A stretch of DNA of 64,000 bases from Chloroflexota bacterium (GTDB lineage Bacteria > Chloroflexota > UBA6077 > FW602-bin22 > JBCLEL01): NCBI GenBank assembly GCA_965262895.1, contig OZ253568.1:3547317-3611316 (forward strand), read 5' to 3'. Position numbers and translations under genes: made by a program. Below the pieces are notes generated by a model. That model was not told the origin of the DNA and made no database searches. It saw only the letters and a list, made by a program, of their open reading frames with translations. Position 1 is the stretch's first letter, and every line of letters begins with the position of its first letter. Below, in pieces: positions 1,109 to 61,140 of this stretch.

Positions 1109-1642
1109 TCAGGCGCCGCACGTTGCCAGCATCCCCTTGCGCCATCCGTGTTACGAAAATAGATTGCTCCAGTGACGCTTGCGGGTCCAGGTGACCCCGG
1201 CGAGCCTCGTCATTCCGATCGCCCAACTCGTCGTTCCGGCGGAAGCCGGAATCCAGGGGAGGCGAGGCAGGCGACATTGGAACTCGAGCACTTCCACCAT
1301 CCAGCCACCTCCATTGTTGTACCCTCGTGTTCTGGTGGCAATCGGCATGGGCGATTGGTACGAAAGCATGTCCCGGACTCCGATCCGGGATGGATCCCGG
1401 TACCGGCCGGCGACACCAACCACCGTCACCCGAACAACGACAGCCGAGGGCCGCAGGAGAGATGTAGCGCTGGGGCTTCTCCCCAGCAAGGGGACGGGTT
1501 GGGGGGCACAGACGACACCTGAACCCTTCCATCAACCAACGCACCCAATTTTCATACCTTCGAGTGCCGGCGCCAGCCGGCATGAGCGATTGGTACGAAT
1601 GGTCGTGTTAGGGATCTATTCAGGCGCCGGACCTGGCCAGCA
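1102..1642 (+). repeat. Mosaic hairpin-repeat cluster 1
   Basis: Contains module B (1229-1259), E-like (1318-1356), A (1357-1390), C (1463-1487) and E (1548-1591). The cluster is bracketed by ~30-nt direct repeats aatctattcaggcgccgNacNtNgccagca at 1102-1131 and 1613-1642. ORF-track ORFs here (912..1583, 1179..1664 etc.) are translations of the repeats. Confidence 0.85.
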
Positions 1643-1660
1643 AAACCTTGCTTCATCTGC

Positions 1661-2226
1661 TTAAGAGTTCCTATTGCCGATGCCGTGTAATTCAAGATCT
1701 ACGATGTCGTCCGCCAAAGACTCCGGATCGAGTTCCTGATCTGAGTGGCAAACCATGTGCCGGACGACTTGCTCAACCAGTCCCCCCAACGCAATAGACA
1801 CGACGCGGGTTTCATGCGGGCGAAGATATCCGCGCCGAATTCCGTATTGCAGCCGAGTTTCAAGTGATTGGGCAAAGGCCCGATTGAACTCGAGTAGGCG
1901 AGTATTGAGGTCCGGATCGGCTCCCATTGCCTCTTGGTAGTAGATCCGCGCAAGTTCCCGGTTTTCGTAACACGTCCGCAGCGTGAATAATATCCGCGCC
2001 CGGGCAGTCTCCCGAAATGCGCGAAGGTCGCCTGGTTCGTCAAGAGACGCTGACAATAGTTTGTCAGCGAAAATCGTCAGGAACCGCTCAACCACTTGGC
2101 GGAAGATATCGCTCTTGCTTGCGAAGTAAAGATAGAACGTTCCTTGCGCCACGCCGGCTTCACGAACGTGCGAACCGCCGCATCGAGTAGCTGTTCCCGC
2201 CTTGAATCAGCGTCAGGATTTGCCAC
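1661..2226 (-). pseudogene. TetR/AcrR-family regulator with a frameshifting deletion inside the N-terminal HTH
   Basis: ORF 1661..2152 starts at ...AGVAQGTFYLYFASKSDIF, which is helix 3 of the TetR HTH plus the C-terminal domain. A different frame upstream (GTG 2226) reads VANPDADSRREQLLDAAVRTF, which is helix 1. About 15 residues expected between RTF and REAGVAQGT are missing, and the two parts are out of frame; the junction is near 2156-2169. Confidence 0.6.
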
Positions 2227-2236
2227 GAATCACCTC

Positions 2237-2265
2237 AATAATGAATGACACGTCAGTCATTATAT
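2237..2265. promoter_or_regulatory. Inverted repeat, candidate TetR operator
   Basis: aataatgaatgac-acgtca-gtcattata lies immediately upstream of the TetR remnant. The AATGAC/GTCATT arms are the kind of palindrome bound by TetR-family dimers. Confidence 0.3.
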
Positions 2266-2304
2266 CCTCCGATTGAGCAAAACGCCAGTTTGCGCAAGGT
2301 AGCC

Positions 2305-2403
2305 AACTGTTCAGTCCTAGGGGCCAGTCGCGTGGGCGTCATTGCAATGAACACAGGCGCTCCATTGACCCTCAAGGGCGCCTCGCCACAACCTAAACTC
2401 GCC
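2305..2403 (+). mobile_element. Internally deleted third copy of the MITE seen at 56030 and 57131
   Basis: The left end aactgttcagtcctaggggc...cgtgggcgt matches aagtgttcagatttaggggc...cgtatgggcgt. There are internal aatga..cacaggcg and caagggcg matches. The right end caacctaaactcg matches caaacctgaactg. No clear target-site duplication. Confidence 0.4.
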
Positions 2404-2435
2404 GAACCGTGAATTTACAGCCGATAGTGGAGGCA

Positions 2436-3012
2436 GAGAATGTAGCGCTGGGGCTCGTCCCCAGCCAGGCCCGAGCGGCCGCCGGCCCGAGTCGCCCCAT
2501 CCGGCGGTCCATCAGAGGTAAACGTCACTGTAGGGGCGATTCGCGAATCGCCCTGGGCGGCGTAATCGACGCACCCTCGCCTACCCGCCGCCCACTTTGT
2601 CATTGCCGCGTAGGTGTCTCCCGTAGAATCGCCCCCAATTCGTCATTCCCGCGAAGGCGGGAATCCAGGGGTGGTGTATGGGTGGCAAATGAACCGCAAA
2701 CACCTCCACCAGTCAGCACCTTAATTTTCATACCTTGGTGTGCCGGCCGCAGCCGGCATGAGCGATTGCTATGAAAGCATGTCCCGGACTCCGATCCGGG
2801 ATAGACCGCTCCAGCAGCCTCTCATTGGTCATTCCGGCCCCTCAATTCGTCATTCCGGCGAACGCCGGAATCCAGAGGTGGTGGGGAGAGGGGATTGTAG
2901 CGCTGGGGCTTGTCCCCAGCTTAGGGTGGGCCGCTCGTTCGTGCACGTTGCACCGCCCGGCGTACCACCATTTTCATCCTCTTATGCGGCCTTCGCACGG
3001 CCATGGTGATTC
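2436..3012 (+). repeat. Mosaic hairpin-repeat cluster 2
   Basis: Contains module C (2441-2465), a GTAG plus perfect 20-nt palindrome gggcgattcgcgaatcgccc (2530-2553), B (2641-2671), E (2724-2767), A (2768-2801), B (2848-2878), C (2896-2920) and D (2966-3013). Confidence 0.85.
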
Positions 3013-3124
3013 CCATCTCTGAATACTTACAAATGAAGCCCAGAATTCAGAGTTGATCTTTTCTCAGGCGAAGCGTGTGCCGCAATGAGGTGGCGGGAAT
3101 CGCTTCTCAATTCCGCTTGCCCGG

Positions 3125-4054
3125 TCAGCCCTCGAGTGAACTCCTCAGAGCTGCGCGGACGCCGGCGAAAGACATCCTGCTGTCCGCGACGCGGTCGGGT
3201 CCCCCGCCGCCAGCAGTTGGCGGATGCCAGTGGGTCTCGAGGCTCAACGTGCCGGCATACCCGTCCCGACGGAGAGCCTTGAATTGGCCGACATAGTCCA
3301 CCTCGCCGTTTCCCACCGCTTCCCACGAGGTCAGGCCAGTCTTGTCATCCACCACGCGCGCATCCTTCACGTGCATGTGACATATGAGTGTCTTCACCGC
3401 ATCGTATCCGTCCGGCAAGGGTTTTCCGCCGGATACGTAGTCGTTGCTCGGATCCCATATGGCCCTGATTGACGGATGGTCGGCGGCACGGATTATGCGC
3501 GCCAAGTTTATGCCGGTGTTCCCCCAACACGAGCGGACGTTTTCTAAACCCAAAACTAGGCCGGCTTCCGCCGTCTCATCGCCGGCGATTCGTAATCCTT
3601 CGACGATCTTTTCCAGCATCTCGTCCGGAATTTCCCCGCCTTGTGGCAATCGCGGGCTTGGATTGCCGTAGCCAACCATACTCTCTCGGCGGAAAGAGTA
3701 GGTCCGAACCACCGGCGCCCCCACCCGCTTGGCGACACGAATGCTCGCCTTCAGTATTTTCAGATCTTCTTGGAATGCCGAGTGGTCCGGGATCCTGCCT
3801 ATTGGTACGTTGCCAATCAATACCAACTTTAGAAAAAGTGATCCAATTGCACTCACACTCAATTCGAACTGATCGAGCAAGTCACGCGCCCTGTCAATCT
3901 CTCCCTCATCCATAGCGACGACGGGCTTGCCCCAGAATTCGTACAGCTCGACGCTACGCATTCCCAATTCCTTGGCAACTCCCAGCGCCGTCTCGAGGTC
4001 GGAATGCACCTCGTCTGTACAGACTCCAAAGTTGTGAAGCAGCCTGTCTTTCAT
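3125..4054 (-). CDS. Sugar phosphate isomerase/epimerase (xylose isomerase-like TIM barrel)
   Basis: 309-aa ORF. The sequence pattern (…ELGMRSVELYEFW…, …LGLENV…, …HMHVKDA…, …LSLETHW…) is typical of the AP endonuclease 2 / xylose isomerase-like TIM family. Confidence 0.75.
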   Translation of the reverse strand: MKDRLLHNFGVCTDEVHSDLETALGVAKELGMRSVELYEFWGKPVVAMDEGEIDRARDLLDQFELSVSAIGSLFLKLVLIGNVPIGRIPDHSAFQEDLKILKASIRVAKRVGAPVVRTYSFRRESMVGYGNPSPRLPQGGEIPDEMLEKIVEGLRIAGDETAEAGLVLGLENVRSCWGNTGINLARIIRAADHPSIRAIWDPSNDYVSGGKPLPDGYDAVKTLICHMHVKDARVVDDKTGLTSWEAVGNGEVDYVGQFKALRRDGYAGTLSLETHWHPPTAGGGGPDRVADSRMSFAGVRAALRSSLEG

Positions 4055-4136
4055 TGTTCGTTCCCCGTAGATCCTTTAAAGACCAAATGCGCGATCGTTG
4101 TAATCCCGATTGGATAGACCATTGGACTCTTGCTTC

Positions 4137-5408
4137 TCAGGCCGACGTGAGATAGCGCAGCCACAGGTAACCGGAAGACAGGATCAGCGTCATCACTGTG
4201 ACTATCACCCCATACTTCATGAAATGCACAAATGTGATCTTGTAGCCGTTGCGTTCGGCAATACTCGCGACAATCACATTCGCAGATGCACCTATGATCG
4301 TAGCATTCCCGCCAAAGTCAGCGCCCATCGCCAACGCCCACCACAGCGGCTGAACCGGAAGTACGTTTCCGACTTCTTGTACTAGCGGAATCATGGCTGC
4401 CGTAAATGGGATGTTGTCGACTAATGCCGAGGCCACCGCCGAGAGCCACAGAATCAATAGGCCCGTGAGTACGAGGTTCGTTCCCGTGATTTCCAGCATC
4501 CCGTCGGCTATAGTCTCGATCAGCCCAACGTGCTCTATCCCGCCCACCACTATGAAGAGACCTACGAAGAACAGAAGAGTCGTCCACTCAACCTCTACCA
4601 GAATGTCATGAGGGTCCGGCCGAGTGATGACCATCAACGCTGCCGCGCCCGTCATCGCGACGGTGGCGGCTTCGAGGTGGAGTAACCCGTGAAGAAAAAA
4701 GCCAACTACCGTGGCGGTGAGGACGATTAGACTAGTCCGGAGGAGCTTGGGATTGGTTATCAGGCTCGACGTATCGATCTCGTCAAGTTCCTTTATGGTC
4801 TCCGCTGACGTCTGCAACTCGTTCCGCCAGAACACCCAGATCAATACGATCAAGCCGACCATTCCTAATATAGAAATCGGGAGCATAGCGCCGGCGAAAT
4901 CTAAGAAATGGATGTGAGCAGCGCTGCCGATCAGAATGTTTGGCGGATCTCCGATTAAAGTAGCCGCACCGCCGATGTTCGAGGCGTAAACTTCGGCCAA
5001 GAGCATCGGGACCGGCGATACCCTGAGGACTCCCGCAAGGTAGATTGTGACCGGCGCCACGAGGACCACTGTGGTGACATTGTCCAGCAACGCCGATGCC
5101 CCCGCCGTTAGCAGGCACATTATGATGAGCACCCGCAACGGCCGGCCGTGGCCTAGTTTGGCCGCCATCACCGCCAGCCAGGTGAACACACCCGTGTGGC
5201 GCATCGTGTTGGCGATGATCATCATGCCGATCAATAGGAAGATCACATTCCAGTCTACGGATTCGAATGCTTGTTCCTGCGTGATTATTCCCGACAGGAT
5301 GATTAGCATTGCCCCTGCCAGCGCCGCAATAGTCTTGTGCAATCGCTCGGTCGCGATCACCGCGTATGTGATTAGAAAGATCGTGGCGGCTATGAAAGTT
5401 GGGGTCAC
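4137..5408 (-). CDS. ArsB/NhaD-superfamily permease (citrate-transporter-like anion permease)
   Basis: 423-aa polytopic membrane ORF. The N-terminus MTPTFIAATIFLITYAVIATERLHKTIAALAGAMLII is typical of the ArsB/NhaD/YbiR family. Confidence 0.75.
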   Translation of the reverse strand: MTPTFIAATIFLITYAVIATERLHKTIAALAGAMLIILSGIITQEQAFESVDWNVIFLLIGMMIIANTMRHTGVFTWLAVMAAKLGHGRPLRVLIIMCLLTAGASALLDNVTTVVLVAPVTIYLAGVLRVSPVPMLLAEVYASNIGGAATLIGDPPNILIGSAAHIHFLDFAGAMLPISILGMVGLIVLIWVFWRNELQTSAETIKELDEIDTSSLITNPKLLRTSLIVLTATVVGFFLHGLLHLEAATVAMTGAAALMVITRPDPHDILVEVEWTTLLFFVGLFIVVGGIEHVGLIETIADGMLEITGTNLVLTGLLILWLSAVASALVDNIPFTAAMIPLVQEVGNVLPVQPLWWALAMGADFGGNATIIGASANVIVASIAERNGYKITFVHFMKYGVIVTVMTLILSSGYLWLRYLTSA

Positions 5409-5439
5409 GGATACAACATCCTCGTTTAAGTCTCCTCGT

Positions 5440-5952
5440 TTAAGTCTCGTCGGTTGGATTCTCGATAACTTGGTCCATCCACATGCCCAACAATTGCACT
5501 ACATCTATCACCGCCAAGAGGTGGCCGTCGTTATCCACAACAGGCAAAGCGGTTAGATTGACCACAGGGTCATGTAGTAGACGCAGCGCGTCAACCAAGC
5601 GAGCATCTTGATTGATTGAGACCCCAGGCTCCATCAGTTGAGTGGCGGTACGTGCAGCCTCGAGTTGAGCGAACTCGAACACGTCATCCAGCGTATCTAT
5701 ATCGGCCATTAGCAACTCGGGAGCTAGACGGTCTAGTGCCTCACCGCAAATCGTCGAGAGTCGGATCAGACCCACCAGTTTTTCATCTTCGTCGACCACC
5801 GGTAGTACACGTTGGGTCGGGGCTGAAATGACCGCTTCTACCACCTTCGTCAAGTTGTCGTCCGGTTTGACTGAGGCCAGATCCGCTCTCAAGGGTGAAA
5901 TGACATCGCGAATCAGCGTTGTTCTGGTCACATGAATTCGTGGTGCGGACAC
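5440..5952 (-). CDS. CBS-domain pair protein
   Basis: 170-aa ORF with two CBS-like repeats (…LPVVDEDEKLVGLIR…, …ALPVVDNDGHLLAVID…). It lies directly upstream of the permease gene in the same orientation. Confidence 0.7.
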   Translation of the reverse strand: MSAPRIHVTRTTLIRDVISPLRADLASVKPDDNLTKVVEAVISAPTQRVLPVVDEDEKLVGLIRLSTICGEALDRLAPELLMADIDTLDDVFEFAQLEAARTATQLMEPGVSINQDARLVDALRLLHDPVVNLTALPVVDNDGHLLAVIDVVQLLGMWMDQVIENPTDET

Positions 5953-6002
5953 AGCGTAGCTCCTTGGTTTGTAGTAGCAGGGGTATGCTCAGTATAGCGG
6001 AA

Positions 6003-6605
6003 ATAGTTGGTACGAAAGCATGTCCCGGACTCCGATCCGGGATGAATAGTTCCCGCCACCGAATTCGTCATTCCGGCGAAAGCCGGAATCCAGAGGGGAG
6101 GGGTGGCATCCATGACACCCAAAGATCTCCAACGACCAGGCCTCATTTTCATACCCTGGTCTGCCGGCGGCAACCGGCATGAGCGATTCGTACGAAAACA
6201 GATGGTTCCTGTAGCGCCGGCCGGTCCAGTCGCCCCGGCGAAGGCCGGAATCCAGGGAAGGACGGTTTGTATCGCTCTGCCTCCTACCCATCGATGGGAG
6301 AGGATTGAGGTGAGGGTGAAGAGGTCCCCCGACACCAGCCACAGCCGAGAGCAGAAAGGCAGACTTGTAGCGCTGGGGCTTGTCCCCAGCAAAGGCCACC
6401 CGGCGGGCAGGCAAGACTCGGCAGAGAATACCCGAAGGTCGCCGGCGGTTCCCGCAGAATCGCTCCCACAGTGATTCTATAATAAGACAAACGTTCGCAG
6501 CATCCCGCCACCGGATGTAGGGCCAGCTCGGAGGACTGCCCTGTGTGGAAATCGAGAGGCCTTGGCGGGCCTCCGCCGGTTCCCACAGGATCGTTTCTAC
6601 AAACG
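6003..6605 (+). repeat. Mosaic hairpin-repeat cluster 3
   Basis: Contains A (6009-6042), B (6066-6096), E (6145-6188), an empty A site (6185-6209), B (6229-6256), F (6280-6319), C (6366-6390) and further hairpins (agaatcgctcccacagtgattct; gaggccttggcgggcctc). Confidence 0.85.
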
Positions 6606-6711
6606 TAAAAATGCAAAACAAAAACTACGCCGGCACGCCGCCGGGTATCGGAGTCGCTCGTACGGCCGCCCAACGCGGAGAATCGAGACCCCTGTGCCCA
6701 CGCTCAAGGGT

Positions 6712-6739
6712 TTGACTATACGCCAATACATGCTATATT
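6712..6739 (+). promoter_or_regulatory. Sigma-70-type promoter of the trp leader
   Basis: TTGACT (6712-6717), a 16-nt spacer ending in TGc, then TATATT (6734-6739), giving an extended -10. It sits ~35 nt upstream of the T-box stem I. Confidence 0.55.
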
Positions 6740-6774
6740 TCTTCCACAATTGAATAGCTAAAGACTGCGAACAG

Positions 6775-7041
6775 GATTATTAAGCTTCCCGACGGGGCTC
6801 AGAGAGCCGGGTAAGGTGCGAGCCGGTGCCAGTCAAGGAAGTCGAATGGACCTGGGAGTTGCTGCTTGAAAGCTGGAGCTAGTAGACGCAGCCGGATGTC
6901 TCGCCGTTAATTTGAGGCCGGGTATCGGATGGCTTTGTGTTGTCCCGTATCCCATTATGAGTGGGCTCGCCGCTGGTGAGCCAAGCGGGGTGGCACCGCG
7001 AGAGTTGACCTCACGTCCCCTAGAGGACGCGAGGTTTTTTT
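6775..7041 (+). promoter_or_regulatory. T-box leader (tRNA-Trp specific) with intrinsic terminator
   Basis: Stem I elements AGAGAG...GGUGCGAG (6800-6830). Specifier-loop context GAA-UGG-A (about 6844-6850). Conserved T-box sequence aagcgGGGUGGCACCGCGag (6983-7002). Terminator cctcacgtcc-cctaga-ggacgcgagg followed by T7 (7008-7041). Confidence 0.85.
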
Positions 7042-7058
7042 ATTTGTGGAGGATATTC

Positions 7059-8549
7059 TTGTACACGCCTTCCCCGGCAGAGGTCAAGAACCTGGCAAAG
7101 GATGGCAATCTGGTTCCAGTCTACCGGGAGATACTTGCTGACCTGGAAACGCCGGTTTCAGCCTACATGAAAGTAGCCAACCAAGGCAGCAGTTTCCTCT
7201 TGGAGAGCGTCGAGGGCGGTGAACGGTTGGCTCGATACTCATTTATCGGATGTTCGCCTTTCCTGACGGTGCGAATCAATGCTGGCCAGGCTACCTTGCA
7301 CCGCCAGGGCCGATCCCCAGAACGACGTACGGTTTCCAATCCGATGGATTTGATCCGCGAGTTGATTGGCCAGTATCGCCAGGTTTCGTTAGACGGGCTT
7401 CCACGCTTTCATGGTGGTGCCGTGGGCTACCTGGGTTACGAGTGTTCTCGTTACTTCGAACGCCTTCCCGCGCCTTCGAACGACCCGCTCGATTTGCCGG
7501 AAGCGATATTGCTGTTCACCGATACGCTACTCGTCTTCGACCACATCCAGCACAAAATCAAAGTGGTGAGTCACGTTTATTGCGACGATGGGATTGATTC
7601 TGCCTACGCAAATGCAGTTGATAGGATTGACGCTTTGATTGAACTTCTGCGACGCCCCCTTCCGGCCGCGAAGAGACACGAAGCGCTCCCGCCAGTGGAC
7701 CCAACAGCCGGGCACGAATTCAAGTCGAATATGAGTCAAGAAGCGTATGAAAGCATGGTTGCCCACGGTAAGGAATACATTTTTGCGGGGGATGTCATAC
7801 AGGTTGTTCTTTCACAAAGATTCAGTCGGCCCACTACAGCTGAGCCACTCGATATCTACCGGGCATTGCGGACGATCAATCCCTCACCTTACATGTTTTT
7901 CCTGGACTTGGGTGAATGCCACCTGATCGGAGCCTCGCCCGAATTGCTGGTTCAAGTGGAAGATGGCCAGGTCACGACCCATCCTATCGCCGGAACGCGC
8001 CGGCGAGGTCGAACACCGCAAGAAGACAAAGATCTCGAGCACGAGTTCATCAACGACGAAAAAGAGCGTGCCGAGCACATAATGTTGGTGGACCTGGGCC
8101 GCAATGACATTGGACGGGTCAGCCAACCTGGCACCGTGCAGGTCCCTAGATTGATGGGAATCGACCGGTTGTCGCATGTTATGCATCTGGTGTCCCAGGT
8201 TACTGGGCGACTTCGGCCGGAAATGGACCAGTACGATGCCTTCCAGGCGTGTTTCCCTGCTGGTACGATTTCCGGCGCGCCCAAGATCCGGGCTATGGAG
8301 ATCATTGCCGAGCTTGAACCCGACTTGCGCGGCCCATATTCTGGTGCGGTTGGCTACTTTGGCTACTCCGGAAATTTGGACACGGCAATTACTATTCGGA
8401 CTATGGTCATGAAAGATGGAATCGCACACGTTCAGGCCGGCGCAGGAATCGTAGCTGACTCTGTCCCGGAACGCGAGCACGTCGAGTGCCTGAACAAGGC
8501 GCGGGCTTTACTCCATGCAGTTACCGTTGCCGAAGAACTACACGATTGA
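7059..8549 (+). CDS. trpE: Anthranilate synthase component I
   Basis: The ORF-track ORF (6912..8549) begins inside the T-box leader. The first start after the terminator is TTG 7059, in frame, with GGAGGA at 7048-7053. The product ...NLVPVYREILADLETPVSAYMK...GAPKIRAMEIIAELE... is canonical TrpE. Confidence 0.9.
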   Translation: MYTPSPAEVKNLAKDGNLVPVYREILADLETPVSAYMKVANQGSSFLLESVEGGERLARYSFIGCSPFLTVRINAGQATLHRQGRSPERRTVSNPMDLIRELIGQYRQVSLDGLPRFHGGAVGYLGYECSRYFERLPAPSNDPLDLPEAILLFTDTLLVFDHIQHKIKVVSHVYCDDGIDSAYANAVDRIDALIELLRRPLPAAKRHEALPPVDPTAGHEFKSNMSQEAYESMVAHGKEYIFAGDVIQVVLSQRFSRPTTAEPLDIYRALRTINPSPYMFFLDLGECHLIGASPELLVQVEDGQVTTHPIAGTRRRGRTPQEDKDLEHEFINDEKERAEHIMLVDLGRNDIGRVSQPGTVQVPRLMGIDRLSHVMHLVSQVTGRLRPEMDQYDAFQACFPAGTISGAPKIRAMEIIAELEPDLRGPYSGAVGYFGYSGNLDTAITIRTMVMKDGIAHVQAGAGIVADSVPEREHVECLNKARALLHAVTVAEELHD

Positions 8550-10213: not shown

Positions 10214-10265
10214 TGCTCTGTTCGCTGCACGTGTTTATGAAGTTGCCTAGCCTAGTTCCCGATCA

Positions 10266-10995
10266 CATTGGTACGAAAGCATGTCCCGGACTCCGATCCG
10301 GGATAGATGGTTCCCGCCACCGAAGTCGTCATTCCGGCGAAAGCCGGAATCCAGAGGGTTGGCAGAGGTGGCACCAATGACAGACGAACACTTCCAGCAA
10401 CCAGACCCGGATTTTCCTACCTTGGTGTGCCGGCACCAGCTGGCATGGGCGATTGGTACGAAAGCATGTCCCGGACTCCTATCCGGGATAGATGGCTCTT
10501 GTCACCAAATTCATTATTACCGCGTAGGCGGAAATCCAAGGAAGGCATGGGTGGCGGAACTGCGCGAATCCATCACAGACCTTCGAACGCGACAATCCGG
10601 AGGGGGCAAGGTTCTGCCTCCTCTCCCTCGACGGCAGACGATCGAGGTGAGGGTGACCCCCGCAGGGCCAGGGCTTGTCTCCAGCCAAGGGCACACGGGC
10701 AACCCGCCCCACACGACCTGCCGTGTGCCATCTCGCGAATTCCCCTCGCTCACTCCGTCATTCCCGCGAAGGCGGGAATCCAGAGGGGGTAGGAGTGGCG
10801 CGAATGACAGCCAAACGCTTCTGAAGACCAAGCGCCATCTTCACGCCTCGCTGTGCCGGCAACGAACGACGCGGACCATTCCTATGAGCATAGATGGTCA
10901 CCACCTAATAAAGAGGGGATCCCCCTCCTCTCCCTCGATGGGAGAGGATTGAGGTGAGGGTGAACCCGGTAGCGCTGGGGCTTGGCCCAAGCCAA
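10266..10995 (+). repeat. Mosaic hairpin-repeat cluster 4, inside the trp operon
   Basis: Contains A (10270-10303), B (10327-10357), E (10411-10454), A (10455-10488), degenerate B (about 10517-10545), F (10617-10655), C-like (10655-10690), B (10756-10786), F (10924-10963) and C (10969-10992). ORF-track ORFs 10281..10952 and 10307..10792 are repeat translations. Confidence 0.9.
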
Positions 10996-31834: not shown

Positions 31835-32165
31835 GTCGTCATCGGTACGAACGCATGTCCCGGACTCCGATCCGGGATTGACGCCCCAATTAACCTCGCC
31901 AACGCCTCCCCACACCCTAAGCTTGCCGCACCAAGAATTTCCGGCCGATAGTAGAAGGAAGAAATGTAGCACTGGGCCTTGTCCCCAGCCCCGGGCGCGG
32001 CGGGCAGCCCGCTCTGGTTGTATACCGACCGGCTCCATGTTCATCCTCTTACGTGGCCTTCGCTTGGCCACGGAGATTTCCGTGAACCCGGGAATCCAGA
32101 GGAGGCAAAGATGGCGCCATAGATTCCCGGTTTCTTGGTGTGTTACCATCGTGCTAACAGCTTGG
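31835..32165 (+). repeat. Mosaic hairpin-repeat cluster 5
   Basis: Contains A (31844-31877), C (31965-31989), D (32033-32081) and the B right half (gaacccgggaatccagagg, about 32085-32103). It lies in a divergent intergenic region. Confidence 0.8.
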
Positions 32166-32881: not shown

Positions 32882-32967
32882 GCCGGGGTGGCGGAATGGC
32901 AGACGCAGGGGACTTAAAATCCCTCGCCCATTAGGGCATGAGAGTTCGAGTCTCTCTCCCGGCACCA
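32882..32967 (+). tRNA. tRNA-Leu (anticodon UAA), class II with long variable arm, CCA encoded
   Basis: gccggggtggcggaatggcagacgcaggggaCTTAAAAtccctcgcccattagggcatgagagttcgagtctctctcccggcacca. Acceptor GCCGGGG/TCCCGGC, T-arm gagag-ttcgagt-ctctc, anticodon loop cuUAAaa. Confidence 0.9.
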
Positions 32968-47234: not shown

Positions 47235-47575
47235 CACCATCCCCCGCTCTCGTCATTCCGTCCACGCGTCTCCTCATCACGCGAAGGCGGGAATCCACGA
47301 ACCGTGGCCGCGAGGAAAGACGACAGTCTAGAAACAACGGACTAGGTCCACCGAGAAAAACGTAGCGCTGGGGCTTGTCCCCAGTTCAGGGCACGGCGGG
47401 CAGCGCGCCCTGTTTGTACCGTCCGGCGTCCCACCATTTTCATCCCCTTACGCGGCCTCCGCAAGGCCATCGGCGATTCCGGCGAAAGCACGCCTCGTAC
47501 CCCGATACGGGGCCGGAATCCAGAGGAGAAGTGGACAGCACCAATCTTCATGCCCTGGCGTCCGGCCGGGTTCCG
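47235..47575 (+). repeat. Mosaic hairpin-repeat cluster 6
   Basis: Contains B with upstream half-site (47251-47298), C (47361-47384), D (47432-47480), B carrying a nested 22-23 nt hairpin insert (47473-47526) and an E-like tail. Confidence 0.8.
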
Positions 47576-50443: not shown

Positions 50444-50454
50444 AGATCGCACTA

Positions 50455-50580
50455 CGTCTCTTCCATCCGCCTACGAGGTTAGCTGCCGGGCTCGGGCTGA
50501 AAGAGTTGCCCTATCTGGCACAAACCAGAACTCGCCCCATCGTTGGGTTCCCCGCTCTTCGCAAGAAGATTAGGCCATCT
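50455..50580 (-). promoter_or_regulatory. Cyclic-di-AMP riboswitch (ydaO-yuaA / kimA class)
   Basis: The minus-strand RNA is ccuaaucuucuugcgaAGAGCGGGGAACCCAacgaUGGGGCGAguucugguuugugccagaUAGGGCaacucuuucagCCCGAGCCCGGCAGCUAACCUCGUAGGCGgaugg. This matches the two pseudo-symmetric conserved halves of the ydaO motif (AGAGCGGGGGACCCA ... GGGGUGAAUC ... CCCGAACCCGUCAGCUAACCUCGUAAGCG in B. subtilis). Confidence 0.85.
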
Positions 50581-50750
50581 ATTCAGTTTTCGGCAGCTAT
50601 CTTATAACTAGCTGCTTTTAGAGTCAACAAGGAGAAAACGAGTTGCTCCATGGGATTTGGAATGCCATTCCTCGAGCGAATTCTCCGGACCCTGCTCGAA
50701 TCGACATGCGCTCGTAGGTGTCGGAGCGGGTACCGTTACTAACAAAGCGC

Positions 50751-54761: not shown

Positions 54762-55088
54762 CTATCCGCCCTTCCACTTGGAGTCATCCGGGAAGATTGT
54801 TGATCCCCGGTAGATTACCCTCGCTTCGATCACGTCCTGCGAAGCCTCCCGCCACTTAGCCAAATGAGGCGTACGCGTGTGTGCCTCAAAGGCATCCTCG
54901 TCAGCGTATATTTCGTAGGCGTAGATCGTGTTAGGATCACTCTCGTCCTGGCTAACGTCGAACTGGTAGCAACCTGGTTCCACACTCACCGAGCTGCCGG
55001 CGTCTTCGACTAGCGCCGCGACAACGGCATCGCAGTGTCCTTCTTGGATCTTGAACTGTGCTATCAAAACGAACATCTTTCTTACCAT
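54762..55088 (-). CDS. Antibiotic-biosynthesis-monooxygenase (ABM) domain protein
   Basis: 108 aa: ferredoxin-like dimeric alpha+beta barrel pattern (…EPGCYQFDVSQD…IYAYEIYADEDAFEAHTRTPH…). Confidence 0.7.
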   Translation of the reverse strand: MVRKMFVLIAQFKIQEGHCDAVVAALVEDAGSSVSVEPGCYQFDVSQDESDPNTIYAYEIYADEDAFEAHTRTPHLAKWREASQDVIEARVIYRGSTIFPDDSKWKGG

Positions 55089-55094
55089 GACCTC

Positions 55095-55868
55095 CTATTC
55101 TGTGGCTTTCAAAAACTCTTCGGTGGCCGGACCCAGAACTTGATACACGCTTACTACGGTAAAGTTAACCCCGCGCCCGCGTTGAATCTGGGCCCACTCA
55201 TCCGCTTTGTCCAGGTCCATAGTCGGAATGCATATGTGGCGGCCCGCCGATCGCACCTGTCCTACTACCTCCGCTACCACCTTCTGAACCTCGGGGTGCT
55301 CCCAATGACCAGCTACGCCCAACGACTCCGCCATATCCATTAGTCCGAGCATGAAAATGTCGATTCCTGGGACTTTGAGAATCTCCGGCAAGTTATCGAC
55401 GGCTTGCTTTTCCTCGATCATGCCTATGACGATCGATTCCTCGTTGACCCGGTCTTGGTACTCCCTGACGGACGATACGAAGCCGTACCGAGCGGCGCGT
55501 GCCGCTGCATTGCTGCCACGACGACCAACCGGGCGGAAACGAGTCTGTTCGACAATCGCCTCGGCCTGCTCCCGCGTATTCATATGTGGCACCAACACGC
55601 CACCCGCGCCCATGTCCATATAGAGACTTATCATGGCCGGGTCGTTTCGATAAAGTCTGACTATAGGGACCATCCCAGAGTTTTGAGCCGCTCGAACCAT
55701 GCTCTCGCAGGTTTCTGCGTCTATGGTGGCCTGATGAACGTCGATGAAGGTCCATTCGAAGCCGGCGTAGCCGCCAAACTCCACTAGGGCAGGCGATGCG
55801 ACCGCTACCGCCCATCCCCTCAAGTACTCGCCGGCATCAGCCCTCGCAATCAGTGATCTGGCACTCAA
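55095..55868 (-). CDS. HpcH/HpaI-family aldolase
   Basis: 257 aa: ...FIDVHQATID...VRLYRNDP...GAGGVLVPHMNTREQAE...IEEKQAVDNLPEI... are typical class II pyruvate-aldolase motifs. Confidence 0.75.
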   Translation of the reverse strand: MSARSLIARADAGEYLRGWAVAVASPALVEFGGYAGFEWTFIDVHQATIDAETCESMVRAAQNSGMVPIVRLYRNDPAMISLYMDMGAGGVLVPHMNTREQAEAIVEQTRFRPVGRRGSNAAARAARYGFVSSVREYQDRVNEESIVIGMIEEKQAVDNLPEILKVPGIDIFMLGLMDMAESLGVAGHWEHPEVQKVVAEVVGQVRSAGRHICIPTMDLDKADEWAQIQRGRGVNFTVVSVYQVLGPATEEFLKATE

Positions 55869-56029
55869 TTCAAGCTCCTCGGGTAGAATCGTGCGATGAT
55901 GAGGGCACCTACGTTGTGTCAGACGTCCGCTGGTGAGCCAACGTCGGGATCGGCGCCATCATCCGTTGCACCCTCAAAGGATAATTATTCGGGCCACAGC
56001 CGCGCCAGTCAAGCGCCGCAGCCCAACGT

Positions 56030-56266
56030 AAGTGCTCAGATTTAGGGGTACCTAACTCCGTGTGGGCGTAATATCGCGCCAATGAGTGTCTACCACAGGC
56101 GACGACGTCTGATCGGGGAAAGCCAGGAAAGGGTTGCAAGGGCGAAGCCCTTGCCGGGGGATGAGGTCGACCAGATCGTGGAGTTGGAATTCACCCCTTG
56201 ACTGCCGACTCGGCCTATCCAGTTCACGGGCATGGAGGAGAGAAATACACCCAAATCTGAACTGTT
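56030..56266 (+). mobile_element. MITE copy R1 (237 bp)
   Basis: About 85% identical to 57131-57401 apart from two indels. The termini aagtgctcagatttagggg ... cccaaatctgaactgtt form imperfect inverted repeats. It is flanked by a degenerate direct repeat, gcagcccaacg (56018-56028) / gcagctcaaccg (56267-56278). Confidence 0.7.
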
Positions 56267-56438
56267 GCAGCTCAACCGATGCAGAGAGTAATAGATTTCC
56301 GAGAAATTCTTACGGAGCCGCCTGAGGTTGATCCGGATTGCCCATTTGAGCTTTCCAGCGCCGGATTATGTAGCCATCTATAATATACAAACCACAATAT
56401 ACAAACCACAAGTCAACCAAAATTGGAAAGGAGCGACA

Positions 56439-56753
56439 ATGACTAGAGAAGAGAGGGTCGCCGCAGCCAGCGAGATCGGCTCCGGCGAGTTCAAGAGCGT
56501 GGACGTGGACGGCCAGTTGTTATTGTTGGCAAACGTCGAAGGCAAGATCTACGCTGTGTCGGATATCTGCACCCACGAAGAGTGTACCCTATCCGACGGC
56601 GCAATCCTGGAAGGCGTAGAGGTCGAGTGTGAGTGTCACGGTGCGCGCTTCGACGTCACCAACGGCGAGGTCACACAGGAACCGGCGGAAGAGCCCCTGA
56701 AGACCTACGATGTGAGCGTTCAAGGTGACGACGTTCTCGTATCGTTAGACTAG
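56439..56753 (+). CDS. Rieske [2Fe-2S] ferredoxin (oxygenase ferredoxin-component type)
   Basis: ATG 56439 preceded by AAGGAG. The product MTREERVAAASEIGSGEF...CTHEECTLSDG...CECHGARFD has the CxH...CxxH Rieske motifs. Confidence 0.85.
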   Translation: MTREERVAAASEIGSGEFKSVDVDGQLLLLANVEGKIYAVSDICTHEECTLSDGAILEGVEVECECHGARFDVTNGEVTQEPAEEPLKTYDVSVQGDDVLVSLD

Positions 56754-56867
56754 GCTCCCTGGCATCCGCTCAGGTATCAAGACTCAGTTCATACCTGCGT
56801 AAATCGGTATGACGTTTAGCTAGAAAAACGGCTCTGCCGAGTCCGACACTTATCAACTGCCCGCCGA

Positions 56868-57095
56868 CTACGTCACTCCAGGGGAGGGATGGCCGGCGTA
56901 AGTGCGAGCCTTTTCCAAAGGAAATGGCAGGACAAGCTGCCATGTACGACCGGGGAGAGGGTTGAGGTGAGGGTGAATAGAGTCCCGCCCTAGCTCGCGA
57001 CTCCAATTACTGTCGCGTTTGTTGTACCACCCCGCGCCACACCATTTTCATCTCCCTGATGTGGCCTTGCGAAGGCGACGGACTTTCCCCGCCTT
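56868..57095 (+). repeat. Mosaic hairpin-repeat cluster 7
   Basis: Contains a B right half (tccaggggagggatggccggcg), F (56952-56976) and D (57038-57088). The flanks parallel those in cluster 8. Confidence 0.7.
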
Positions 57096-57130
57096 CCTGC
57101 CACAAAACAATAGCAATTGCGTCAGATAGT

Positions 57131-57401
57131 AAGTGTTCAGATTTAGGGGCACCTGCTCCGTATGGGCGTAAGATCGCACCCATGAGGGTCTACCACAGGG
57201 AAGGACGTTTGATCGGGGAAAGCCAGGAAAGGGTTGCAAGGGCGAAGACCTTGCCGGGGGATGAGGTCGACCAGCTCGTGGATTTCGCATCGGATAGGTT
57301 GGAAATCACCCCCTTGATTGCCTACTGAGGTCGCGAGTGGCGACTCGGCCTTTCCGGTGCACGGGCATGGAGGAGAGACGTACACCCAAACCTGAACTGT
57401 T
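57131..57401 (+). mobile_element. MITE copy R2 (271 bp) with perfect target-site duplication
   Basis: Termini are aagtgttcagatttagggg ... cccaaacctgaactgtt; the reverse complement of the right end, aacagttcaggtttggg, matches the left end at 14 of 19 positions. The identical direct repeat gcgtcagatag lies at 57119-57129 and 57402-57412 (13 nt, ttgcgtcagatag, if two terminal T are counted). Confidence 0.8.
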
Positions 57402-57418
57402 GCGTCAGATAGAATATC

Positions 57419-57448
57419 TTGACAATATTGAGTTAGTTAATAGATAAT
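57419..57448 (+). promoter_or_regulatory. Candidate promoter of the rhodanese gene
   Basis: TTGACA (57419-57424), 18 nt, then GATAAT (57443-57448). It lies immediately right of the MITE R2 insertion. Confidence 0.4.
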
Positions 57449-57521
57449 AGCGTCAATTCTTTCTTGTCGCGATTGCCAAAGCAATCAGAATCAGTTCGCT
57501 CACATTGGAGGTTGAGTTCGC

Positions 57522-58367
57522 ATGGGAACGGGATACGCAAACCCGGATGTATTGGTAAACACGAAGTGGGTAGCTCAGAATCTAGACAATTCGACAGTCA
57601 AGCTAGTAGAAGTCGATGTAGACACTAGTGCATATGACAGCGGCCACATAGCCGGGGCAGTCGGTTGGAATTGGCAGACTGACCTGACTACACAGCCGGT
57701 TCGGGACGTGATCAGCATTGATCAGCTTAACCAATTGTTGAGCCAATCCGGCGTCAACGATGGCGACACCCTCGTCCTGTACGGAGACAACAACAACTGG
57801 TTTGCCGCCTGGGCGTTCTGGCAGCTGACAATGGCAGGTTACCCCGACCTCAGACTGATGAATGGAGGTCGTCTGAAGTGGGTATCAGATGAGCGGGCAC
57901 TGACCACCGAAGTGCCTAAGCCGGCAGCCGGCAACGCGACTGTCAGCGGAGATGATCAGAGTCTGCGAGCGTCCCGCGAAGATGTTTTGGCAGGCATTGG
58001 ACAAGCGGAGCGAGGGCTCGTCGACGTGCGTTCTCCTGGGGAGTTCAGCGGCGAGTTGCTGGCCCCAGCAAACCTGCCTCAAGAGGGCGCCCAGCGCGGT
58101 GGACATGTCCCTGGCGCATCCAACATTCCCTGGCTTACGGCAGTTAACGATGACGGCACCTTCAAGTCGGCCGACGAGTTGAGAGACATATACGAGGGCC
58201 AAGGAATCACCGCCGACAAAGACATAGTCGCCTATTGCCGAATCGGTGAGCGGTCTTCGCACAGTTGGTTCGCGTTGAAATACCTGCTCGGTTATCCGAA
58301 CGTGCGTAACTACGACGGATCTTGGACCGAATGGGGCAGCATGGTCGGCGTGCCGATCGAACGATAA
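57522..58367 (+). CDS. Thiosulfate/3-mercaptopyruvate sulfurtransferase (tandem rhodanese domains)
   Basis: 281 aa. Active-site loop YCRIGERSSHSWF. N-terminal inactive rhodanese domain. Confidence 0.85.
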   Translation: MGTGYANPDVLVNTKWVAQNLDNSTVKLVEVDVDTSAYDSGHIAGAVGWNWQTDLTTQPVRDVISIDQLNQLLSQSGVNDGDTLVLYGDNNNWFAAWAFWQLTMAGYPDLRLMNGGRLKWVSDERALTTEVPKPAAGNATVSGDDQSLRASREDVLAGIGQAERGLVDVRSPGEFSGELLAPANLPQEGAQRGGHVPGASNIPWLTAVNDDGTFKSADELRDIYEGQGITADKDIVAYCRIGERSSHSWFALKYLLGYPNVRNYDGSWTEWGSMVGVPIER

Positions 58368-58402
58368 TAGGCGTCTCCGACCCGTAGTATCGAAACTTCA
58401 CT

Positions 58403-58441
58403 GAGACCGGCCGAGCGGAGGCTCGGCCGGTCTCTATTTCT
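58403..58441 (+). terminator. Intrinsic terminator after the rhodanese gene
   Basis: gagaccggccgagc-ggag-gctcggccggtctc (14-bp stem) followed by tatttcttc. Confidence 0.7.
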
Positions 58442-58598
58442 TCGCCTTTTCGCATAACATCGGTCGCCAGACTTTTATTACCATGGTAATCCTCTGAGTA
58501 TTGGCAGTCCGCTCACTCGGCCTTAGTGACGCCCGCGGTTCCGATCGAACGCTCACAATTTTGGCTGAGAAGAAATCCGAAGAAATCCATGGTGTTCT

Positions 58599-60653
58599 TT
58601 GCCGGAGGCGCGGCGAGCGTTGAGTGATTTTGCAGGACAGAAGACACTACTGACTGGTCCGGCCCGTACCGGCAAATCGACGTTCCTCAGGCTTCGCTTG
58701 GGCCGGCTATTGTTGGAGGGCGCCCCCGGCAACCAGATCACCGTGGTGACGGTCAATCGATCGGTTGCCAAACAAATGCGTCAGTACGTCGACTCGCTCG
58801 ATCTGCCCGCCGGAGCAACTCCCCGTTTCGACACTTACTTTGGTATCGCCGGCGCCACGGTTGCACGTTATTGGCCACGTGTGCGCGACTTAATTGCGCC
58901 TAGCCGACGCCGTCTTTACCCTGTTCCTCTGGCAAATGATCTCGCTCAATACCATCTGCGTCAGATAGTCGAATCGACGATGCACAACAGAGGCTACTTT
59001 CGCGGCTTGCGTATCCGGCCCGAACGCATCGTGGCTCAACTTCTGGATACCGCTCACAGTGCTGCCCTGAACGATCGATCGCTATCTGACGCCATAGACC
59101 GCCTGAAGGCTACTTGGACGGGCCAACAGATCCGACTGGAGCATTTTGATCAAGCCCACGCGACTTTGGAGGAATATCGCCAGTTTTGTGCCAAAAACGG
59201 ACTTATAGATGTCTCGTTACTTGTCGAATATTTCAGGCACGTATTGAAGTCGGAGAAAACCGCTCTGGCCAGTCAAAGGAATAGAGCCCGGTACCTCCTC
59301 GCCGACAACCTCGAAGAGCACCCACACGTTTCCCAACAGTTTCTTGTCGATCTCGCCGAACATGCGGAGGAGGCTCTATTCGTTGTGGACGAGCAAGCTG
59401 GCTTCCGCCAGTTCCTTGGCGCTTATCCAGCCGGCGTAGATAAGCTCATCCCGCGCCTCGACCGACAAATCCAGCGCACGGCAGAACCATCCGTCGACCA
59501 GGCGATCGCTGACATCCTGTTAGGAAGCGAGGCAACTGGGCGGTCTACTCCCCCTTCCGACAAGAATTTCGAAGTCTGGCTCAGTCGAACAAGGATCGGG
59601 ATGATCGACTTAGTAGTCGAACGGACGAACGCCATTGTTAACGGCCCCGACGGCGGCGGGCAGCGGGTGTGTTTGCTTTCTCCCTACGTAGACGGCCTGC
59701 TGGCTCTCCTGGTAAAGGATGGATTGTCGAAAAACGGCATCCCCCTGCAAGTCCGTCAGCCAGGTGAGGCGCTTATCGACCGACCGTGTGTCCGAGCATT
59801 CCATGCCGTCGCGGGATTGCTTCATCCACGCTGGGCGAGCCCGGTGAGGTATGACGATCTACGCTTGGCGCTCATGGTGTTCCTGAACCTGGACGCCGTC
59901 ACCGCGTCACTTTTGCTCGACAGGTCGGGTTTCAAGTCGAATGGTAGCTTGGCCCGAATCTCCGAAAGCAGGATTGTTGAGGAGGTGGGTGAAGAGTCGG
60001 TGGCGCAATACAATTTCCTACAAAGATGGTCGGCAGCGTATCAGACCGGAGAAGAGCTATCGGTCGATCTGTTCGTGCGCAGGCTGTTTGGAGAGGTAGT
60101 TGCCCGCTCGTACCAACCGTTGCGAACACCGTCAGACGTTGCGGCTGACTTCAGCCGGCTGCAACACGCGGCCCGTCGCTTCGTAGAATTGGGACCCGAA
60201 GTGTTCGCTGGCGGATCGCCGGCGTCCGGCGCCCGTTTCTTGGAAATGCTTTCGATGCGAGTGACGCCAGCAAAGGCCGATGACGATCCTAGCCTGTCTC
60301 CGGGAGTGGTCTACTTGATGCCAGTTCACACTTTTCTGACTGGCGACCTGACGTGCGACTACCAGTTTTGGCTGGACGCTGGCTCCCCAGCTTGGTGGGA
60401 GCCGCCCACGCGCCCGTTGGCAAACTCACGTATCCTCTTGCAAGATTGGCCGTACGATCGTGTATGGGATGTGCGGGCCAAGAGTTCGGCACAGACAGCT
60501 GCGTTGGCCCGTGTTGTTCAAGGGCTGGCCGCGCGGGCGCGGAATGGCGTAAACATCATCGGTTGCGAGGAAGGTGGCAATACTAGTGGCGCCTTGTGGC
60601 GGGCGGTGACGAAGGCTATCGATCCCATTTTTCCAGAGGCGCCGGTGGCATGA
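58599..60653 (+). CDS. UvrD/AddB-like helicase-related protein with degenerate motifs (P-loop NTPase)
   Basis: 684 aa, TTG start. Walker A GPARTGKST and a Walker-B-like YLLADNLEE. The later helicase motifs are weak (…ALARVVQGLAARARNGVNII). No nuclease domain recognised. Confidence 0.6.
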   Translation: MPEARRALSDFAGQKTLLTGPARTGKSTFLRLRLGRLLLEGAPGNQITVVTVNRSVAKQMRQYVDSLDLPAGATPRFDTYFGIAGATVARYWPRVRDLIAPSRRRLYPVPLANDLAQYHLRQIVESTMHNRGYFRGLRIRPERIVAQLLDTAHSAALNDRSLSDAIDRLKATWTGQQIRLEHFDQAHATLEEYRQFCAKNGLIDVSLLVEYFRHVLKSEKTALASQRNRARYLLADNLEEHPHVSQQFLVDLAEHAEEALFVVDEQAGFRQFLGAYPAGVDKLIPRLDRQIQRTAEPSVDQAIADILLGSEATGRSTPPSDKNFEVWLSRTRIGMIDLVVERTNAIVNGPDGGGQRVCLLSPYVDGLLALLVKDGLSKNGIPLQVRQPGEALIDRPCVRAFHAVAGLLHPRWASPVRYDDLRLALMVFLNLDAVTASLLLDRSGFKSNGSLARISESRIVEEVGEESVAQYNFLQRWSAAYQTGEELSVDLFVRRLFGEVVARSYQPLRTPSDVAADFSRLQHAARRFVELGPEVFAGGSPASGARFLEMLSMRVTPAKADDDPSLSPGVVYLMPVHTFLTGDLTCDYQFWLDAGSPAWWEPPTRPLANSRILLQDWPYDRVWDVRAKSSAQTAALARVVQGLAARARNGVNIIGCEEGGNTSGALWRAVTKAIDPIFPEAPVA

Positions 60654-60664
60654 AACCGATTGGC

Positions 60665-61140
60665 CTTCTTTCGGTTGACGTCGGTACGAAAATAGACGGT
60701 CCCCGTCATCGGTACGAAAGCATGTCCCGGACTCCGATCCGGGCTAGATGGCTCCCCTCCCCTTCTGGATTCCGGCGAAGGCCGGAATCCAGAAGGGGAG
60801 GGGAGAGGCAAGATCGCCACACAATAGGCAAGAACCCGGCACCCCACCATTTTCATCCTCTTATATGGCCCGCGCAAGTCCATGGTGATTCCCGCGCATG
60901 TGCGAATCCAGGGGAGGCATGGCCGGCGCACCATCGAACCTGCTCCAACGAAACGGACGCCACAAGCTGCCAGATCTCCCTCTCCATTTGGGAGAGGGTC
61001 GGGGTGAGGGTAAAAAAACCCTCGACATTCCGGCGAGAGCATGTCCCGCACCTCGATACCTGGCCGGAACCCAGGGGAGGCATGGGCCGCGCAAATGACC
61101 CTCAAACACCTCCACCTGCCTGCCCCCTCAATCCCCACAC
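60665..61140 (+). repeat. Mosaic hairpin-repeat cluster 8, between the two helicase genes
   Basis: Contains an empty A site (60683-60700), A (60711-60743), B extended to a perfect 25-bp-stem hairpin (60752-60805), D (60845-60892), a B variant (about 60888-60925), F (60976-61012) and a further B-like right half (about 61060-61085). Confidence 0.85.

Follow-up and report, generated by a model that had tools for sequence, protein, structure and literature searches.

How does a hairpin of about two dozen nucleotides come to sit inside some copies of an intergenic repeat and to be cleanly missing from others? This question is raised by a 64,000-nt stretch of DNA from a Chloroflexota bacterium (GenBank assembly GCA_965262895.1, contig OZ253568.1, forward strand; hereafter the window), for which a first reading from the letters alone, the sequence-only reading, had claimed precise presence or absence of a small hairpin within otherwise homologous repeats. 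Here, we describe this hairpin, termed H, in its source genome (G000; 3.71 Mb, single contig C1, 57.5% GC; window = C1:3547317-3611316) and in two congeners, the sister species G002, which is about 95% identical, and the more distant G001. The entire window is colinear with the sister genome, a single contig of 3.88 Mb, large blocks being mostly 92–97% and a few about 86% identical, and flanking genes of G001 are 73–87% identical. In the window, the repeats occupy intergenic gaps as arrays of 250–670 nt, and their building blocks are units of about 200–250 nt, themselves dynamic between species.

H is a discrete hairpin of 24 nucleotides

H is a discrete cassette of exactly 24 nt (GCATGTCCCGGACTCCGATCCGGG) with exact ends, which was secondarily added to older repeats at ATT-N5-GAAA^ (the caret marks the insertion point throughout). 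It is an intergenic, short imperfect palindrome of high copy number with a 6–7-bp stem, and is composed of the 5' tail GCATG followed by six base pairs of stem (CCCGGA/TCCGGG) around a loop of 6 nt. The stem gains a seventh pair with the first downstream host base, position 25, which lies outside the insert and is either the A of a downstream module or the G of the 3' arm of a host hairpin. As single-stranded DNA (ssDNA), H folds into a 7-bp stem of about -7 kcal/mol on either strand. The tail reads GCATG(T/C), and GTAG/GTGG is found on neither strand.

A covarying subfamily, H' (GCATGCCCCGTACCCCGATACGGG), differs from H by two compensatory pairs, G11-C20 <-> T11-A20 and T6-A25 <-> C6-G25. Overall, 90.8% of the cells are paired, as compared to 81% in shuffles and 25–53% when the partner is slid; covariation of the stem thus points to selection on the hairpin. 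The genome holds about 290 H/H' copies (≤4 mismatches), equally split between the strands, with 162 assigned to H and about 115–130 to H' at ≤3–4 mismatches. Seven copies, all on the + strand, lie in the window, where shuffled sequences are expected to hold none; the sequence-only reading had likewise counted seven filled copies. Nesting of H within H was not seen, and a search for a larger parent element delimited by halves of H returned none, a few copies being truncated by other insertions.

Two details of the earlier description have to be revised. The unit had been taken as 25 nt long, but a filled cgaaa[GCATG...CCGGG]atg turns into the empty cgaaa^atg only by removal of exactly 24 nt; a frame shift by one base gives an unobserved sequence, and other 24- or 25-nt frames fail to restore the empty cgaaa^at(g/a). 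Likewise, a 22–23-nt insert in another module, presented as a second and separate nesting example, is a 24-nt H' of the same family with two mismatches (47488–47511). The sequences quoted in the sequence-only reading lie where it placed them, except that the filled example at 10266 starts with cattgg rather than gattgg and ends at about 10314 rather than 10312.

Target sites and junctions

Nearly every copy of H directly follows, in the same strand, the motif ATT-N5-GAAA^. Two hosts provide this motif, namely junctions between the end motif of an upstream module (E) and a downstream module (D; families D1–D12), and the GAAA loop of a hairpin of the CGTC type (B). At E/D junctions, ATTGGTACGAAA or ATTGCTATGAAA, a half-hairpin, closes a conserved upstream module (U; ...ggtgtgccggcNNNNgccggcatgagcgATTGGTACGAAA), and at least 12 module families follow downstream. 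All of these start with AT(A/G), each is seen both as GAAA^AT and as GAAA-H-AT, and beyond the first ~10–15 nt they are unrelated in sequence. The spacing from E to the anchor is bimodal, with 52 empty junctions, 93 at +24 and none at 5–24 nt; the outliers are single cases of -1, +1 and +4 relative to +24. Under looser criteria, 131 filled E/D junctions stand against 136 empty ones genome-wide. A continuum of deletions, named beforehand as the outcome that would speak against a discrete unit, was looked for in the junction spacings and not found; spacings of 0 or +24, together with the clean orthologous 24-nt indels described below, bear out the claim of precise presence and absence.

The second host is the hairpin CGTC-ATTCCGGC-GAAA-GCCGGAAT-CCAG, in which H' splits the loop from the 3' arm (CGTCATTCCGGCGAAA^GCCGGAATCCAG). 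Genome-wide, by the same looser criteria, 156 B hairpins are empty (spacing class 11) and 76 are filled, the latter in discrete size classes of +24, +25, +28 and +29 nt. Five covarying B stems (ccggc/gccgg, cccgc/gcggg, ccagc/gctgg, cctgc/gcagg and actccggc/gccggagt) each occur in the empty and in the filled state. When B and H' are folded together, the outer B stem is kept with the H' stem stacked upon it, and a GC-GAAA-GC mini-hairpin is closed anew by the leading GC of H'.

The target cgaaa^ataga suggested by the sequence-only reading thus holds for its 5' side, which is conserved as ATT-N5-GAAA^, while the 3' neighbour is merely A or G. Its three empty sites in the window are indeed homologous to filled ones: 6186–6197^6198 combines a U-module end with a D4-like module, 60680–60691^60692 is a mini-unit, and 1150–1158^1159, despite a weaker E motif, continues into a module (atagattgctcc...) whose family is filled elsewhere in the genome (Table 1). 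At the boundaries of H, no target-site duplication, flanking direct repeat or microhomology was found, and slippage is therefore unlikely.

Orthologous sites in the sister species

To compare orthologous sites, 8-kb loci holding an exact H in G002 were aligned, and 52 H/H' sites fell into confidently aligned blocks. In the source genome, 44 of these are conserved, seven are cleanly absent and one is partial, an ascertainment that is one-sided because the loci were picked for the presence of H in G002. Four of the clean absences lie at E/D junctions and three in B loops, two of the latter being of the +28 form. The seven include the empty B loop at window 10342^10343, where G002 has a 24-nt H'. 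The flanks adjoining the orthologous indels are as conserved as the rest of the alignment. Moreover, one 29-nt insert is unique to the source genome as compared to G002.

Three arrays have been rebuilt relative to G002, different modules following the same ttggtacgaaa anchor. Unit boundaries were also sought by aligning rebuilt arrays (window 2150–3050 against G002), an approach that was given up as none of the boundaries was interpretable.

Expansion of H within one genus

Copies of H/H' (≤1 mismatch) rise from 17 in G001 through 195 in G000 to 293 in G002. Across the same three genomes (G001, G000 and G002), empty B hairpins number 97, 125 and 176, and empty E/D junctions 130, 82 and 76; the few H copies of G001 share the same context. 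From the G001 counts it follows that the host sites are old and mostly empty in the outgroup, and that H expanded later; H multiplied in the lineage leading to G000 and G002. Copies of H are about threefold less diverse (pi 0.08, for copies chosen at ≤4 mismatches) than adjoining host 24-mers (0.22–0.29). H is restricted to the genus among the sampled genomes, copies being absent from 24 further genomes of its order and from 398 other sampled Chloroflexota; in public records, exact copies occur in Chloroflexota metagenome-assembled genomes (MAGs). No H was found in viral contigs.

Two JGI metagenome contigs (L103, 666–689; L104, 4389–4412) hold one exact 24-mer each, in other contexts and in unrelated organisms, with proteins 27–47% identical and no similarity at the DNA level. 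In L103, H lies at the centre of an extended perfect palindrome, cccggcGCATGTCCCGGActccgaTCCGGGACATGCgccggg, located between two inverted repetitive extragenic palindromes (REPs) of the CGTC type, and in L104 it adjoins a ctccc-tttcgtaaa-gggag hairpin. By a rough estimate, a chance 24/24 match in the JGI collection is very unlikely, so that H-like hairpins linked to CGTC REPs exist outside the genus.

Orientation of the repeat arrays

For 234 of 267 H/H' copies (88%), the strand on which H is written is the locally C-rich one. Whole arrays are co-oriented with the skew in 134 of 157 cases (Fisher p = 3e-20), and a single array among the 157 is of mixed orientation. The same bias is seen for GTAG REPs (86%) and for U-module ends (92%). 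Array orientation is unrelated to the flanking genes (46 ++, 40 --, 44 divergent, 27 convergent), and crude gene calls reveal no strand bias with respect to the skew (~50:50).

Along the genome, the sign of the GC skew switches at least six times, and the orientation of the repeats flips with it; dnaA (~2,690,946, - strand) lies at one such switch of skew and orientation, with standard polarity. This suggests several large inversions or, alternatively, an unusual replication architecture.

How H may move, and what else could explain it

Secondary, nested gain of H at pre-existing sites is very probable. As for the way of gain, H would be a folded single strand moved in trans by a site-specific enzyme, which would cut after GAAA and after CCGGG and insert H 3' of ATT-N5-GAAA, without target duplication, into the B loop or the half-hairpin ATTGGTACGAAA/ATTGCTATGAAA. 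Such movement would be akin to that of IS200/IS605 and REP elements, which insert 3' of a short target and do not duplicate it. Gain, and possibly loss too, is exact to the base, and a REP-associated tyrosine transposase (RAYT) would be the sole encoded candidate of this enzyme class. Site-specific ssDNA insertion is preferred because the pattern resembles that of HUH/Y1 enzymes in the insertion 3' of a short motif, the lack of duplication, the strand relation and the hairpin dependence, and an ssDNA transposase is a plausible actor. The sequence-only reading had invoked ssDNA hairpin-recognising mobilisation rather than slippage; the dismissal of slippage stands, whereas the ssDNA mode goes no further than plausible, the sole Y1/HUH enzyme being flanked by GTAG REPs. 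Taken as a whole, nested gain combined with enzymatic ssDNA insertion in trans is the best explanation, to which we give slightly better than an even chance; whether the insertion is catalysed by a site-specific enzyme rather than guided by homology is, in our judgment, about evenly balanced. The findings that weigh against enzymatic insertion concern the candidate enzyme, the polarity of the events and the sorting of H and H' among their hosts.

The sole Y1/HUH protein of the source genome is an intact RAYT of 168 aa (2239020–2239523) with HVH and Y-x3-NP motifs, which scores 109.9 bits against NF047646 (cut-off 80) and 33.7 bits against transpos_IS200 (cut-off 55); the profile search of the genome returned this RAYT alone and no IS200-type TnpA. 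In all three congeners, its gene is flanked by GTAG REPs (GTAGCGCGGGGGCTTGTCCCCCGC) and not by H, the nearest H in the source genome being one degenerate copy about 270 nt downstream, and related RAYTs occur in relatives without H. Furthermore, H carries neither a GTAG nor a CGTC tag and has one hairpin, whereas derivatives of IS200/IS605 have a pair of left and right ends. That the RAYT is the enzyme in question is rather doubtful in our view. A guide/cleavage pairing between GCATG and GAAA by analogy to IS608 was sought, and no convincing pairing was found.

Two side observations concern transposases of this genus. The RAYT is 73% identical between genomes whose flanks are about 95% identical, at different coordinates (G000; L082 in G002; L083 in G001), so that it is either fast-evolving or was replaced. 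Transposases of the IS110 class, which targets dRS3 in Neisseria, were considered as movers of H and rejected: their copies (2/12/11 in G000/G001/G002) do not track H, and there is no footprint logic. Several IS110 genes of G002 do lie within or beside H arrays (C1 894158, 1039142, 2485177, 3309248 and others), as expected of REP-targeting IS110.

Polarity is accessible at the level of families only: at the loci tried in G001 the arrays are absent and the intergenic DNA is too diverged to polarise single sites. The replication-strand bias, once a candidate for H-specific evidence of insertion, was discarded for this purpose, as it is identical in filled and empty targets (E/D junctions 114:17 vs 119:17; B hairpins 63:13 vs 134:22); it thus belongs to the array system at large rather than to H insertion, and lends no H-specific support to insertion at the replication fork.

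The main rival is homology-guided copying, in which H would spread or be erased between paralogous junctions by short-patch gene conversion or replication template switching and no dedicated transposase would be needed. Such copying would use ATT-N5-GAAA together with the U module or the B 5' arm on the left, and the B 3' arm or the weakly conserved ATRGAY..CTCCC start of the D modules on the right. Subfamily H is almost confined to E/D junctions and H' to B loops, each being tied to one flank class, and the closing base pair, formed with a host base, covaries with the subfamily, as copying along with the flanks would have it. The +28 class likewise accords with a like-flanked donor more readily than with free transposition: in 50 filled B hairpins, an additional GATC stands 5' of the original loop (G-ATC-GAAA/GGAA/GAAG/AAAA) besides H', the resulting 8-nt loop is absent from all empty B hairpins, and the whole of GATC plus H' was added to an empty hairpin in one step at two orthologous sites (e.g., the orthologue of G000 2806132; L052 6597). 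Three of the four orthologous E/D events concern one and the same junction type, no cognate transposase was found in the genome, and the filled fraction is independent of strand orientation. Copying nevertheless requires that H first arrived before at least 12 unrelated D families by a non-homologous event, no tracts of co-converted single-nucleotide polymorphisms are visible beside the orthologous indels, and the exact H stands in other contexts in the two unrelated metagenome contigs. We regard it as unlikely, though clearly to be reckoned with.

Units could also have become filled or empty through a few ancient indels and have since been amplified as a whole, without any independent mobility of H. 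The dynamics of the 200–250-nt array units between species and the fair homogeneity of the 50 B+H' copies of the +28 class would suit such composite amplification, which we deem very unlikely nonetheless: orthologous sites differ by clean 24-nt indels while their flanks are conserved on both sides, H is found in B hairpins of five covarying stem types and ahead of at least 12 D families, it is less diverse than its flanks, and the outgroup G001 has the host units with few H.

Highly improbable is the reverse polarity, in which all units were once filled and H was lost by precise excision or deletion. Excision, too, would leave exact empty sites, and all seven differences ascertained from G002 are absences in the source genome; this one-sidedness, however, comes with loci chosen for H in G002, a 29-nt insert exists in the source genome only, about 230 empty sites face 17 H copies in G001, and there are no flanking repeats to drive deletion.

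Action or movement at the RNA level, with H as a structured transcript element or inserted via an RNA intermediate, is hardly credible: stem covariation does indicate a selected hairpin, and an RNA intermediate has reportedly been proposed for the movement of the small dispersed repeats (SDRs) of cyanobacteria, but the arrays are oriented without regard to the flanking genes, and a scan of the window with Rfam, which returned only a T-box leader (6758–7023, +), a c-di-AMP riboswitch (50453–50586, -) and a tRNA (32882–32964, +), placed no family over the repeat arrays.

H among known repeat systems

The closest precedent for H is given by the SDRs. Eight families of these (SDR1-8) are said to occur in Nostocaceae, as hairpins of 21–27 nt with compensatory changes that were proposed to be the smallest mobile elements. 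They reportedly reside in fixed contexts (e.g., SDR5 within HIP1), are nested and confined to clades, and were recently mobile judging from related genomes. Measured against these features, H is likewise about 21–27 nt long, a compensatory hairpin in a fixed context, nested, clade-restricted and polymorphic, a likeness of kind and not homology. H differs in that it has no sequence relation to SDRs, occurs in a different phylum, targets a half-site or, in a CGTC-type REP hairpin, the edge of the loop, was not seen nested within itself and belongs to a host system co-oriented with replication. The Nostocaceae SDR study (Elhai et al., 2008, Genome Res 18:1484) is cited in PMC5861425 and PMC3116915.

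GTAG REPs and the related BIME and REPIN-RAYT systems, the latter known as REPtrons (PMC6006769, PMC3116915), resemble H as short extragenic hairpins of hundreds of copies in mosaic clusters, and GTAG REPs share arrays with H. In contrast to these, H lacks the GT[AG]G tetranucleotide, does not flank the RAYT, forms no inverted doublets and is a guest inside other repeats. The IS200/IS605 family (PMC6006769) also inserts 3' of a short, defined sequence and leaves the target unduplicated, in a hairpin-dependent and strand-specific manner, but has separate left and right hairpin ends and TnpA, as opposed to the single 24-nt hairpin of H. By their defining features, H is neither a GTAG REP nor an IS200/IS605 derivative.

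The host hairpin B, on the other hand, corresponds to the description of CGTC-1 REPs, with a CGTC tag, an 8-bp stem beginning with AT, a 4-nt loop and a CCA tail (PMC3733652), and its cccgc variant fits the dRS3 consensus ATTCCCN8GGGAAT (PMC1797815). CGTC REPs were reported to have no dedicated transposase, and CGTC repeats were not listed for Chloroflexi (PMC3733652). Neisseria intergenic mosaic elements (NIMEs), described as specific to Neisseria, form arrays in which many module families are interleaved with dRS3-type hairpins and which are dynamic between relatives (PMC1797815), as are the host arrays here. This is a resemblance only, and unlike NIME/dRS3 arrays, the host units described here are uniformly head-to-tail and replication-oriented, and their hairpin loops are colonised by a second element.

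Nesting of REPs within small palindromes has been described for GTAG-23 of Thermomicrobium roseum (Chloroflexi), GTAG-15 of Anabaena variabilis and CGTC-1 of Halothiobacillus, and T. roseum has unoccupied target palindromes as well (PMC3733652). There, however, the guests are GTAG or CGTC REPs or dimers, and no analysis of orthologous filled and empty sites or exact junctions is given (PMC3733652).

Features of the window and further mobile elements

The copies of H and H' and the empty targets in the window are listed in Table 1.

Table 1. Filled and empty sites of H and H' in the window (positions relative to the first base of the window).
Feature	Position	Strand	Remarks
H copy	1366..1389	+	exact match; after ATTGGTACGAAA, then D3-type module
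H copy	2777..2800	+	after ATTGCTATGAAA, then D2-type module
H copy	6018..6041	+	left array edge; G002 orthologue keeps ttggtacgaaa anchor, without H, different module next
H copy	10279..10302	+	conserved in G002
H copy, 1 mismatch	10464..10487	+	conserved in G002
H copy after cggtacgaaC	31853..31876	+	G002-colinear block without 24-nt gap; conserved in G002
H copy after atcggtacgaaa, then ctagatgg and CGTC-type hairpin	60720..60743	+	conserved in G002
H' copy GCACGCCTCGTACCCCGATACGGG in loop of CGTC-type REP hairpin	47488..47511	+	5' arm and loop 47476-47487, 3' arm and tail 47512-47523; conserved in G002
Empty junction attcgtacgaaa^acagatggttcc	6186..6209	+	junction 6197^6198
Empty junction gtcggtacgaaa^atagacggt	60680..60700	+	junction 60691^60692
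Empty junction, degenerate E motif, gttacgaaa^atagattgc	1150..1167	+	downstream family filled at genome 988417
Empty CGTC-type REP hairpin gtcattccggcgaaa^gccggaatccag	10328..10354	+	G002 orthologue with 24-nt H' exactly at 10342^10343
Empty CGTC-type REP hairpin, unoccupied target	6067..6093	+	
Empty CGTC-type REP hairpin, GGAA loop	1230..1256	+	
Empty CGTC-type REP hairpin, cccgc/gcggg stem variant	2642..2668	+	fits dRS3 consensus ATTCCCN8GGGAAT (PMC1797815)
Empty CGTC-type REP hairpin	2849..2875	+	
Empty CGTC-type REP hairpin	10757..10783	+	

Apart from H, a second nested mini-insert was observed, a 21-nt sequence (GTCGAAGACTTCGCGAGGCGA) within the stem of a GTAG REP (gtagcgcg^gggcttgtcccc). 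In G002 it occupies several sites whose orthologues in the source genome are empty; the REPs of the latter comprise 244 uninterrupted copies and one with the insert. The source-genome positions that face the G002 mini-insert loci L026, L036, L058 and L061 are 643795, 667646 and 1720517 (21 nt each) and 667237 (42 nt).

Larger elements are polymorphic between the two species as well. G002 holds miniature inverted-repeat transposable elements (MITEs) of about 370 nt (L078, 9230–9700 and 10540–11020) with terminal inverted repeats TAAGTGTTCAGATTT... and 9-bp target duplications, and the corresponding window sites, 23480 and 24415, are empty. A 183-nt core is nested in a central palindrome, in either orientation, in about 30 copies in MITEs of the source genome. 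An element of about 30 copies with GAGGTACGAAA had been considered as a link to H and was set aside, as it is a MITE without relation to H that has a nested core and duplicates 9 bp of its target. Finally, an insertion sequence of 1.3 kb with an integrase-core-like open reading frame (L077, 15492–16794) lies in G002 inside an array that is intact at about position 10955 of the window.

Implications

H ranks among the smallest known DNA units that appear to be mobile. In a practical sense, work on it is limited by its host, an uncultured organism known from MAGs only. In return, it offers an unusually clean data set, in which the boundaries are exact, the target is defined over 12 nt, two subfamilies covary, filled and empty sites run to hundreds within one genome, copies grade from 17 through 195 to 293 across three congeners, and gains or losses are seen at orthologous sites. 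The findings extend CGTC/dRS3-type hairpins and NIME-like mosaic arrays to the Chloroflexota, and demonstrate that co-orientation with replication can extend to a complete repeat system without including the genes.

A bolder proposal is that H is a self-sufficient substrate of 24 nt for a site-specific transaction of single-stranded DNA that puts a hairpin into a hairpin loop, be it by the RAYT working on a hairpin without GTAG, by some enzyme so far unrecognised or by a process at the replication fork. We consider this quite improbable. If true, the minimal needs in cis of a mobile element would be one 6–7-bp stem and a 5-nt tail, and H would represent the second independent case of mobile DNA of the smallest class, the SDRs of cyanobacteria being the first. 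The defined target ATT-N5-GAAA^, unlike the situation for SDRs, would then make the mechanism directly testable in vitro.

H bears on how the smallest repeated hairpins spread in general, be they REP-like elements without a cognate transposase, CGTC REPs or the SDRs of cyanobacteria. Its mobiliser, if identified, would define a minimal enzyme substrate.

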